From NCBI GenBank assembly GCA_038889235.1, contig JAWAHN010000001.1, forward strand, positions 240,001 to 272,000: a DNA stretch of 32,000 nucleotides, read 5' to 3'. The DNA is from Candidatus Jordarchaeales archaeon (GTDB lineage Archaea; Asgardarchaeota; Jordiarchaeia; Jordiarchaeales; Freyrarchaeaceae). Within the stretch, counting starts at the first letter, position 1; every line of letters begins with the position of its first letter. Of this stretch, positions 3,184 to 21,755 are shown piece by piece. Below the pieces are notes generated by a model. It searched no databases. It was not told the origin of the DNA and saw only the letters and a program-made list of their open reading frames with translations. Both the position numbers and the translations under genes were made by a program.

Positions 3184-3582
3184 TTGAAGGTTGAAGACGT
3201 TGCGAGACGTAAACTGGTCACATGCAAGATTGACGACGACATCCCATCTGTCGCTAGATTGATGGTTGAGGAGGAGGTTGGGTCTGTTTTCGTCGAGGAT
3301 AAGAGCGGTAAGATCGTTGGCTTAATAACTGATGGACAGATATTCCGGCTTCTTGCCCAGCGCCGGGACACCGCTACCGTTAAGGCGGGAGACATTATGA
3401 CTAGGGAGGTTTACTCGATAGACAAGAACGCGTCGCTTGCAGATGCTTGGAAACTCTTCCAGTCGACAGGAGTCAAAAGACTCGCTGTGACCGACGAGGG
3501 GAGGATAATTGGGGTCTTGAGTAGGAAAGTGGTTCAGCGACTCATGAAGTTCGAGAAGGCGACTTCGCTCGCCCGCAGCTAG
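3184..3582 (+). CDS. CBS domain pair protein
   Basis: Two CBS repeats (VGSVFVEDKSGKIVGLITD; VKRLAVTDEGRIIGVLS). GAGGTGG RBS upstream of TTG. Confidence 0.9.
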   Translation: MKVEDVARRKLVTCKIDDDIPSVARLMVEEEVGSVFVEDKSGKIVGLITDGQIFRLLAQRRDTATVKAGDIMTREVYSIDKNASLADAWKLFQSTGVKRLAVTDEGRIIGVLSRKVVQRLMKFEKATSLARS

Positions 3583-3710
3583 AAGGACGACGCCTGGTTC
3601 TCAGATGGCTTGCTTACCTCTACGACAGCGTCCGTTCGGCTCCTTGCGCGAGGAACTCGTTCTAGCTTGCAGTTCCTCTTGTCCACCTGCGGGGTCGGTG
3701 TTTACATTGT

Positions 3711-19065: not shown

Positions 19066-19723
19066 GAAGTTCTCGGCGGCTATACTCGCCGGGGGATCTT
19101 CGTCGAGAATGGGTGTGGAGAAGGGGCTAGTGAACTTAGCGGGGAAACCGATGATACTATATGTTATTGAGGCGTGTAAGGTTTTAACGGACAACGTGTT
19201 TGTTGTCGCCTGCTCTGACAACGTGAAAGCTTACTCAGAAAGGTTAGCTGGAGTGGTTGAGGTTGTGCAGGACGTTGATGTAGGGTTTAAGTCGCCTTTA
19301 GTTGGAGCTTACACCGCGTTCCTGCATCAGAGGAGAGGATATGTCTTCCTTTTACCTTGCGACGCGCCCCTAGTCAAACCTATAGTGCTCTCATTCCTTG
19401 GAAGCTTAGCCGACAGATGGGACGCCGTTATCCCAAGATGGCCAAATGGCTACATTGAGCCGCTTGTCGCGGTTTATAATGCAAGCAAAGCACTGCACTC
19501 CGCCGGGAAAGCTATCGAGGAGGGACGTAGGGACATGATGGCGCTTGTAGAGAGAATTAAGGCGCTCTATGTTTCAACCCTAGTTATAAGGGAGCTGGAC
19601 CCGGAGCTTGAAACCTTCTTTAACGTTAACACGCCTGACGATCTAAGATCTGCTGAGAGTAGGATTATGAAGAAGCGGGAGAATAGAGGAGAAGAGGTGA
19701 AAGTGGGGTTTGGAGGTCACTGA
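19034..19723 (+). CDS. mobA: Molybdenum cofactor guanylyltransferase (start may be TTG at 19046)
   Basis: ILAGGSSSRMG..KGL, PL.G, PCDAP, EPL.AVY, FFNVNTPDDL. Confidence 0.9.
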   Translation: MRGFLTRESGEKFSAAILAGGSSSRMGVEKGLVNLAGKPMILYVIEACKVLTDNVFVVACSDNVKAYSERLAGVVEVVQDVDVGFKSPLVGAYTAFLHQRRGYVFLLPCDAPLVKPIVLSFLGSLADRWDAVIPRWPNGYIEPLVAVYNASKALHSAGKAIEEGRRDMMALVERIKALYVSTLVIRELDPELETFFNVNTPDDLRSAESRIMKKRENRGEEVKVGFGGH

Positions 19724-20815
19724 GAAGTTTAGGAGCGCTGGCGTGGCAAAGGAAATAGTGGAGGAGATTAGGAGGCTGAAGCCGGACAGAAAAGTGAAGT
19801 TCATGCATGTTTGCGGGACAGCTTGAAGGCCCCGATACACGAGCAGACTGTAAGCCGGTTTGGCCTGAGGAGTCTCCTTCCCGAAGGAGTTGAGATAGTC
19901 GCTGGTCCAGGATGCCCTGTCTGCGTGACGCCAACGATGGCTATTGACAGGGCGGTAGAGCTGGCTCTTAGAGGGGTGACGGTTGCAGTTTTCGGGGACT
20001 TAGTGATGGTGCCGGCTACAAAGATGTCGCTCCTAGAGGCGAGGGCTAGAGGTGGGGACGTCAGGGTGGTTTACAGCGTCTCGGATGCTGTCGATATAGC
20101 TCGCAGGAACCCTGACAAAGAGGTGGTTTTCGTTTCTATAGGATTCGAAACCACTGCTCCAACCACGGCCAACGAGCTCTTGAAGGGTGTACCAGAGAAC
20201 TTTAGTGTGATGTGTTACCATAGGCTGATACCGCCGGTGATGGAGCTTCTTCTCGGCGTGGGTGACATTCAGATAGACGGGTTCATATGTCCGGGGCATG
20301 TGGCAGCCATAATAGGTGTGAAGGCTTTCAGGGTTTTCGCTGAGGCTTACAAGATGCCAACCGTCGTGGCGGGCTTCGAGCCCAACGACGTCTTGTTAGC
20401 TATTCTAATGCTTCTAAAACAGCTGCGTGACGGGGAGGCAAGGTGTGAGAACGAGTATAAGAGGGTGGTTAGGGAGGAGGGAAACTTGAAGGCGCAACAA
20501 CTTATAAGGGAGGTTTACGATGTGACGGGCGCTGTTTGGAGGGGTATTGGAAGAGTTCCCCAGTCTGGCCTAGTGTTGAATAAAGACTTCGAGCACTTGG
20601 ATGCAGAGAAAAGGTACGAGTTCTCTCAAATGGAGCACGTAGACATAAACCCCGGGTGTAACTGTCACTTGGTGATGATAGGAAAAATATATCCCCCTGA
20701 GTGTAAGCTTTTCGGCAAAGTTTGCACACCGCAGAAGCCTTACGGCCCCTGCATGGTTAGCTCGGAGGGGACTTGTAGGATATACTATAAGTATGGTAAG
20801 CAGCTGAAGCTATAA
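19710..20815 (+). CDS. hypD: Hydrogenase maturation protein HypD, split into exon 1 (19710-19819) and exon 2 (19837-20815); 362 aa when joined
   Basis: Exon 1 reads MEVTEKFRSAGVAKEIVEEIRRLKPDRKVKFMHVCG(T). Exon 2 reads HEQTVSRFGLRSLLP...GPGCPVCVT...GFETTAP...GFICPGHV...CNC...C..F...CTP..PYGPCMVSSEGTC. The track ORF 19811..20815 lacks the true N-terminus. Confidence 0.92.
19820..19836 (+). other. Candidate 17-nt bulge-helix-bulge (tRNA-type) intron in hypD mRNA
   Basis: CGGG helix (19814-17), ACA bulge, GCT-TGAA-GGC inner hairpin, CCCG helix (19831-34), ATA bulge, outer pairs G-C and T-A. Cutting after the second nucleotide of each bulge gives TGC GGG AC|A CAC GAG = CGTHE in frame. Confidence 0.8.
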
Positions 20816-20867: not shown

Positions 20868-21755
20868 TCACTTTGTCAGTATTGCTGAAAGGTATCCGAC
20901 TATGGCGTCTACCCCGCCTCTTATGTCGTAGCTTGTAGCATACTTCAGTATTTCAGCCTTTCTAGCTCCAAGCCCTCTGGCGGCTACTATCATGCTTGCG
21001 ACAGCGTTCACGCCGCACATCGTTAATCCTTCTTCGTGAACCGTGAAATATAGTCCTTCAGCGTCTAGCTTTTTGATCATCTCCAGTATCCTGCCGTCGG
21101 TGTTGTATATCCATTTTATGACTTTTTCTATGGGAGAGATTCCAGCTGGGGTATAGTCGTACATGGGGCCATAGTGGGTTAAATCGGTGCTCCCCAAAAC
21201 CACAACGTCTCTGCCCAGCTCCTTTGCGGCTTCAGCTACACCCTCCCCGACCTCAACACAAGTTTCGTAGTCCGTTGGTCCGAAGGCTATCGGAACAAAG
21301 CGCACCTCCCCGTAAAGATATTGGAGGAACGGGATTTGAACTTCAAGAGAATGCTCTCTGGCGTGAGCCCTAGGCTCGTCAAGCACTATTGTGGCGTGCT
21401 TCATTATGGCGTTGGCGAGCTCGGAGTCTATTACAGCCTTTCCGAACGGGAGAACCCATGAACCCTTCTTCATTATTGACACGCCCGGGTATCCCATGTG
21501 GCTTGGGCCCATCATGACGAAGCATTCTGGTCTGCCGTCTTCCGCTAGCGCTTTGTAGAGGTGGGCCGCGACCGGACCCGAGTAGTAGTAGCCAGCATGA
21601 GGGGACACACATCCAACTATTATTCTAGCTCCGTTGTCATTTACTTTAGGTATCACTCCGGGGCCATGTTTCTCTTTGAAGCACGACTCTATGGTGCGCC
21701 TTAGCTCGTTGGGGTTTCCGGGGTAGAATCCTACTGCTGCAGGCGCACGCTCCAA
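20868..21755 (-). CDS. MEMO1 family protein (AmmeMemoRadiSam system protein B)
   Basis: VSPHAGYYYSG, GPSH, EHSLEVQIPFLQ, STDLTHYG, TMCG. Confidence 0.93.
   Translation of the reverse strand: MERAPAAVGFYPGNPNELRRTIESCFKEKHGPGVIPKVNDNGARIIVGCVSPHAGYYYSGPVAAHLYKALAEDGRPECFVMMGPSHMGYPGVSIMKKGSWVLPFGKAVIDSELANAIMKHATIVLDEPRAHAREHSLEVQIPFLQYLYGEVRFVPIAFGPTDYETCVEVGEGVAEAAKELGRDVVVLGSTDLTHYGPMYDYTPAGISPIEKVIKWIYNTDGRILEMIKKLDAEGLYFTVHEEGLTMCGVNAVASMIVAARGLGARKAEILKYATSYDIRGGVDAIVGYLSAILTK

Follow-up and report, generated by a model that had tools for sequence, protein, structure and literature searches.

A predicted bulge-helix-bulge intron within the CGxH motif of the hypD gene of Jordarchaeia

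A bulge-helix-bulge (BHB) intron in the crenarchaeal cbf5 pre-mRNA was reportedly described by Watanabe et al. in 2002, and non-canonical tRNA introns are said to have been treated by Marck and Grosjean in 2003. Splicing of the crenarchaeal cbf5 intron has been shown experimentally. For other archaeal protein genes, introns had been predicted as of 2009, but none of these predictions had been confirmed (Yokobori et al., 2009, PMC2738675). A paper from 2020 names cbf5 as the only case located in an archaeal coding sequence, alongside the 5' UTR of HVO_1309 (Schwarz et al., PMC7714728). In the literature examined, cbf5 is the only archaeal gene whose coding sequence is confirmed to undergo splicing by the endonuclease (PMC2738675, PMC7714728), and our literature search found no paper linking hypD to a BHB intron, in agreement with the preliminary description of the present sequence, which knew of no such case. 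Here, we analyze a window of 32,000 nt from contig C1 of a 2.14-Mb, eight-contig genome of an Asgard archaeon, whose closest named relatives are the Candidatus Jordarchaeum and Jordarchaeales MAGs from hot springs. The sole hypD copy of this genome is interrupted by 17 nt (positions 19820-19836 of the window) that very probably represent a BHB intron of the hypD pre-mRNA, predicted to be spliced by EndA and RtcB and to belong to the same class as the cbf5 intron. If this reading is correct, hypD would be the second gene family with splicing in its coding sequence, conserved across a whole Asgard class, and a lineage closely related to eukaryotes would regularly splice protein genes by means of EndA and RtcB.

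The hypD locus shares several properties with crenarchaeal cbf5. Both carry a small, non-self-splicing BHB insert within the coding sequence, which breaks the reading frame and is miscalled as a frameshift, both have kept the intron in some lineages and lack it in others, and both reside in hosts with a two-subunit EndA, as predicted here for the Jordarchaeia. However, hypD encodes a metabolic maturation factor rather than an RNA-modification enzyme, its insert lies in the catalytic CGxH motif, and the lineages concerned are the Asgard Jordarchaeia and, by a separate insertion, Bathyarchaeia. Moreover, splicing has been shown experimentally for cbf5, whereas for hypD it is predicted from sequence. 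The HVO_1309 transcript of Haloferax volcanii likewise represents an mRNA substrate of the tRNA-splicing endonuclease, as predicted for hypD, and releases a short piece, in this case of 46 nt; in contrast to hypD, it is cut in the 5' UTR, with no protein interrupted, its host is a euryarchaeon, and its processing has been confirmed in vivo and in vitro (PMC7714728). Finally, the non-canonical tRNA introns of Asgard archaea and Thermoproteales have the hBHBh' architecture, the cut rule and the lineage context in common with the hypD insert (PMC11291895). In hypD, by contrast, the host RNA is an mRNA and the exon helix is composed of codons (UGC GGG ... CAY), so that synonymous sites would be constrained by RNA structure. 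The observed codon usage is consistent with such a constraint, as the Cys-Gly pair is encoded by TGC GGG in every intron-bearing gene but mostly by TGT GGA or GGT in intronless homologs, with GC content acting as a confounder in this comparison.

The two parts of hypD lie in different reading frames. The N-terminal part is an open reading frame that starts at TTG 19710 and terminates at TGA 19824-19826, with its C-terminus reading ...KVKFMHVCGTA*, and the C-terminal part extends from CAC 19838, reading HEQTVSRFGLR..., to a stop at 20815. The C-terminal part alone covers positions 29-351 of the 351 positions in the Pfam HypD profile (E = 4.7e-134), and the break falls inside the CGxH motif, whose Cys is essential. 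Excision of positions 19820-19836 in silico yields 1089 nt, corresponding to 362 codons and a stop, with the motif reading CGTHE. Exon 1 (19710-19819, plus strand) would thereby begin with the TTG start codon, include two of the three bases of a Thr codon at its 3' end and encode LEVTEKFRSAGVAKEIVEEIRRLKPDRKVKFMHVCG(T), in a frame that is kept in relatives. The predicted intron (19820-19836, plus strand) includes the in-frame TGA, and exon 2 (19837-20815, plus strand) would provide the third base of the Thr codon and the remainder of the HypD domain, which aligns without gaps to intronless HypD. The predicted joint reads ...UGC GGG AC|A CAC GAG... (GCGGGAC-ACACGAG in DNA), the corresponding peptide would span FMHVCGTHEQTVSR, and the protein spliced in silico is colinear with nine intronless HypD proteins, showing no gap through KFMHVCGTHEQTITRFGLRSLLP (FMHVCGTHEQT). 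Upstream of hypD, an open reading frame for a MobA-like NTP transferase (PF12804; 19034-19723) shares its last 14 nt with the beginning of hypD, and the gene order MobA-like, hypD, Memo-like (20868-21755, minus strand) is kept in Freya-type relatives (L060-L063).

In a BHB motif, archaeal EndA cleaves each bulge on the 3' side of its second nucleotide, and the sequence around the hypD break (all features on the plus strand) offers two such bulges. The UG of the Cys codon (19812-19813) pairs with CA (19838-19839) to form the outer helix h, which in this genome comprises just two Watson-Crick pairs; beyond a U/C mismatch, U19810 and G19841 can add a wobble pair. The third base of the Cys codon together with the Gly codon (CGGG, 19814-19817) forms the 4-bp central helix H with CCCG (19831-19834). 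Both strands of this helix are evident from the sequence and the alignment of relatives, and RNAfold predicts the helix as well. RNAfold further places an inner hairpin h' at 19821-19830, consisting of GCU (19821-19823), a UGAA loop (19824-19827) and GGC (19828-19830). The two bulges, ACA (19818-19820) and AUA (19835-19837), have predicted EndA cuts at C19819|A19820 and U19836|A19837, respectively. The locus displays the elements of the hBHBh' architecture, with two 3-nt bulges on opposite strands, a 4-bp helix between them, and flanking helices h and h' of at least 2 bp (UG/CA plus the U-G wobble, and GCU/GGC). Cutting and joining in silico restores a functional reading frame, and the host has genes for both the splicing endonuclease and a ligase of the RtcB type. 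The preliminary description had reported the frame break at TGA 19824 with HEQT resuming in another frame, a BHB with a CGGG/CCCG helix, 3-nt bulges and an inner hairpin, and the restoration of CGTHE and a 362-aa HypD upon excision; each of these sequence statements holds on reanalysis.

The RNAfold prediction, which contains both the central helix and the hairpin inside it, has an energy z-score of -0.4; such an unremarkable value is expected for a motif this small (28 nt), and the fold alone proves nothing. An Rfam search of positions 19650-19950 returned no family. Under a strict hBHBh' definition, the genome contains 58,448 instances among ~5.9e8 combinations of position and length, corresponding to a frequency of ~1e-4 per combination. 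Just two combinations yield a frame-restoring hypD product, and they give the same product because A19820 and A19837 are interchangeable. The preliminary description had judged a chance coincidence of frame repair, motif repair and BHB geometry to be very unlikely.

To place the insert in a broader context, 41 relatives were compared, followed by the whole class and phylum, and the sequence of the joint was read in 31 loci. The hypD open frame is too short in all 11 genomes of the class Jordarchaeia (Freya-type included), and each of them contains an insert between TGCGGGAC and N-CAY-GAR. This insert has a length of 16 or 17 nt within the family, that is, in the genus itself and its sister genus, and of 28 nt in the sister family. 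Three more public assemblies carry the 28-nt form with new loop sequences, and a scan of metagenome contigs revealed three additional intron-bearing hypD loci. Neither the metagenome contigs nor a protein database search revealed a highly identical hypD that lacked the intron or had already been spliced, and the protein search and cluster listing contained no full-length HypD at >66% identity, which is not evidence against splicing. Beyond the class, the same hypD site is occupied in a more distantly related Asgard genome (G016) by an insert of 24 nt, which is in frame but contains a TGA and shows a G/A mismatch within the central helix. In addition, two Bathyarchaeia contigs, from Bathyarchaeota BA1 and a JGI data set (LIHJ01000083.1 (L045), 1470-1510; L046, 1470-1510), possess a stop-bearing insert of 33 nt that is located 1-2 nt upstream of the Jordarchaeia site and has its own helix (UGUG/CACA) and a 7-bp inner stem. 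In a run across the phylum (400 genomes), a short hypD frame was seen only in the Jordarchaeia genomes, G016 and G334 among the ~150 best matches listed, beyond which there were 221 further matches, and the short frame of G334 was rejected as an intron candidate, as it reflects a contig end. As a separate observation, many of the listed hypD matches from one large Asgard family (f9) contain a single TAA or TAG within the alignment. This codon probably represents the regular stop near the C-terminus, past which the alignment has continued (in one case, L018, the HSP ends at residue ~316).

The BHB structure of the insert is conserved among relatives. In an alignment of 11 sequences, 94.3% of the cells in the named structure are paired, compared with 22-50% when the partners are slid by 1-3 columns; the central helix is 97.7% paired, and the BHB is kept in all 11 relatives. 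Three pairs have changed on both sides. Neither alignment pair 13-51 nor pair 14-50 varies, and all 11 sequences have U-G at pair 11-53. The 3' strand of the central helix occurs only as CCCG, CCUG or CUCG, all of which pair with CGGG, using G-U where a base has changed. Within the short forms, the inner stem alternates between GCU/GGC, GCC/GGC and GCU/AGC. Some Freya-type sequences have a C/A mismatch in the inner stem, where one lineage has restored pairing with U-A and another with C-G. The 28-nt forms have an inner stem h' of 6-8 bp. The loops and lengths of the inserts vary while the bulge-helix-bulge is retained, and all 14 intron-bearing sequences tested have some BHB register whose cuts restore CGTHE in frame. 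The preliminary description had raised the question of whether the BHB recurs in relatives, and it does so with compensatory and wobble-preserving changes.

Based on these findings, we propose that the hypD transcript folds such that the UG.CGGG of the exon pairs with CCCG.CA across the insert, a fold in which ACA and AUA would protrude as 3-nt bulges, one from each strand of the 4-bp helix. A two-subunit EndA, made up of a catalytic alpha-like paralog and a paralog without the catalytic His, would then cut after the second base of each bulge, and RtcB would join the exons to yield CGTHE and a 362-aa HypD with its Cys-Gly-x-His motif. We infer that cleavage and ligation of the hypD mRNA take place in vivo. 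The genome encodes two EndA paralogs (PF01974) of ~195 aa each, at C1:1056164-1056754 (plus strand) and C3:444282-444869 (minus strand), as well as one RtcB. According to its sequence, one paralog has the catalytic residues Tyr/His/Lys; among PDB chains, it best matches 3P1Z_B and 3AJV_B, which we take to represent the catalytic subunit in the heterotetrameric enzyme of Aeropyrum pernix. The other paralog lacks the catalytic His and best matches 5X89 and 1A79. This pair of proteins suggests a two-subunit enzyme, the kind of EndA that has been associated with a broad substrate range (PMC5829648). Although the genome is 95% complete, ARAGORN recognized no more than 14 tRNA genes, of which 10 contain introns, and presumably most tRNA genes are too interrupted for recognition by this program. 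The low count fits the finding that introns interrupt 92-95% of tRNA genes in Freyarchaeia and Atabeyarchaeia (Valentin-Alvarado et al., 2024, PMC11291895). One of the ARAGORN calls, a tRNA-Thr on contig C3 (113954-115379), includes an "intron" of 1333 nt.

Instead of being removed from the RNA, the insert could be overcome during translation, through a programmed frameshift or a gene-60-like bypass over the hairpin. The stop codon shortly after the break (TGA 19824) and the small hairpin indeed give the site a superficial likeness to a take-off site. However, a frameshift would leave 5-6 extra residues in the invariant CGxH motif, at a position where homologs have no gap, and the inserts of G016 and the BA1-type genes are in frame with stops, so that frameshifting would not rescue them. 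A bypass is at odds with the lack of matched take-off and landing codons, as the base after the joint is A, G or U among relatives, and with the differing lengths of the inserts (16, 17, 24, 28 or 33 nt), in which the BHB geometry is conserved but the spacing is not. Slippery or matched sites and tolerated residues, the hallmarks of programmed frameshifting and bypassing, are not found in hypD, and we consider translational recoding improbable.

Even less probable is a scenario in which the insertion has inactivated hypD, leaving a pseudogene or only the truncated C-terminal open reading frame that is publicly annotated. Gene callers do annotate nothing but a 5'-truncated HypD, of 292-340 aa, in every member of the clade; taken together, the ~60 public HypD calls (from Jordarchaeales, Freyarchaeota and "Sigynarchaeota") have lengths of 124-340 aa, none of them is full length, they are devoid of the CGxH cysteine, and they are not flagged as interrupted. 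A truncated product would, however, lack precisely this essential residue. Moreover, in some relatives the C-terminal frame opens just 2-3 codons before the His, without a start codon there (open frame of 327 aa), so that a separately translated C-terminal fragment is not a general solution. The selective regime also argues against decay. Exon 1 has kept its frame and sequence across two families, with dN/dS values of 0.06-0.15 at saturated synonymous sites, indicating purifying selection, and both exons are open in all relatives, with no other lesion in either of them. The preliminary description had named a second intact hypD or further lesions as possible signs of decay; our searches of the genome and its relatives revealed neither, nor did they reveal relaxed selection on exon 1 or a loss of the hydrogenase, as the single hypD coexists with genes for HypC and the large subunit of a [NiFe] hydrogenase. 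Finally, interruption of the same site across the whole class is unlike decay, and the relaxed selection and additional lesions typical of pseudogenes were not seen in hypD.

An assembly or sequencing artefact, implying that the 17 nt are absent from the DNA, is a negligible possibility: even though the genome is a MAG in eight contigs, inserts that differ and covary are present at the same site in many independent MAG assemblies and metagenome contigs (NCBI, JGI, ENA, Logan), and four DNA runs from three studies contain 83-100% of the sampled words of the stretch, a word-matching result that adds weak support.

If hypD is indeed spliced, its intron has been overlooked by all public annotation of the clade, which gives a truncated HypD. 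Given that these calls lack the cysteine, both metabolic reconstructions and gene finders would be systematically wrong at such sites.

The phylogeny of HypD provides information on the origin of the inserts. The ten rows from Jordarchaeia form a clade with a support of 99/98. G016 falls into an unresolved group together with intronless Asgard sequences, a placement compatible with either a shared or a separate origin of its insert and the Jordarchaeia intron. The BA1-type genes, on the other hand, are nested among intronless Bathyarchaeia, which makes at least two gains at this hypD site likely on phylogenetic grounds. It is tempting to speculate that the self-complementary exon flanks (CAUGUGUG...CACAUG) may make the site receptive to insertion. 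In a wider view, BHB introns could be recurrently inserting, quasi-mobile elements of archaeal protein genes that have colonized the CG|THE position at least twice independently, once in Jordarchaeia and once, 1-2 nt away, in Bathyarchaeia, and the splicing of mRNAs by the tRNA machinery (hypD, cbf5, kae1, ppsA and others) could be routine throughout the genomes of Jordarchaeia. We regard this broader view as being about as likely to be right as wrong.

A loose genome-wide scan for BHB motifs that fuse open reading frames produced 2257 matches, compared with 2196 and 2118 matches in frame-shifted controls, and thus no enrichment; a tightened version produced 234 matches, compared with 218 and 203 in the controls. 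The BHB motif alone is therefore weak evidence and cannot serve to count mRNA introns, and the case for hypD rests on position and conservation. Within the window, a GC-rich and seemingly strong BHB-like motif (GGCG/CGCC) at 3558-3600, which directly follows an open reading frame for a CBS-domain protein and spans its TAG, was rejected. The frame downstream of it matches no family, and this TAG is probably just the normal end of the CBS protein. The output of the genome-wide scan includes hypD, ppsA, kae1 and cbf5, and hypD is one of several protein genes in this genome that are predicted to be split by BHB inserts. The suggestion in the preliminary description that this lineage may splice ordinary mRNAs thereby gains support in silico, with cbf5, kae1 and ppsA split at consecutive Pfam positions. 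In cbf5 (C1:835640-836700; L049, 1238-2298), a BHB-shaped insert of 14 nt with the helix GUGA/UUAC separates matches to positions 5-72 and then 66-322 of the CBF5 profile, which lie in different frames. The kae1 gene (C1:845359-846548, minus strand; L047) also carries a 14-nt BHB insert, with the predicted joint FSQGPG|LGPCLR and matches to positions 2-61 and then 64-264 of the TsaD profile. In ppsA (C1:711005-713464, plus strand; L048), the BHB insert is 18 nt long, in frame and begins with TGA; its predicted joint reads RSSASAED|LPGASFAGQQ, and the flanking parts match positions 2-113 and then 115-315 of PPDK_N.
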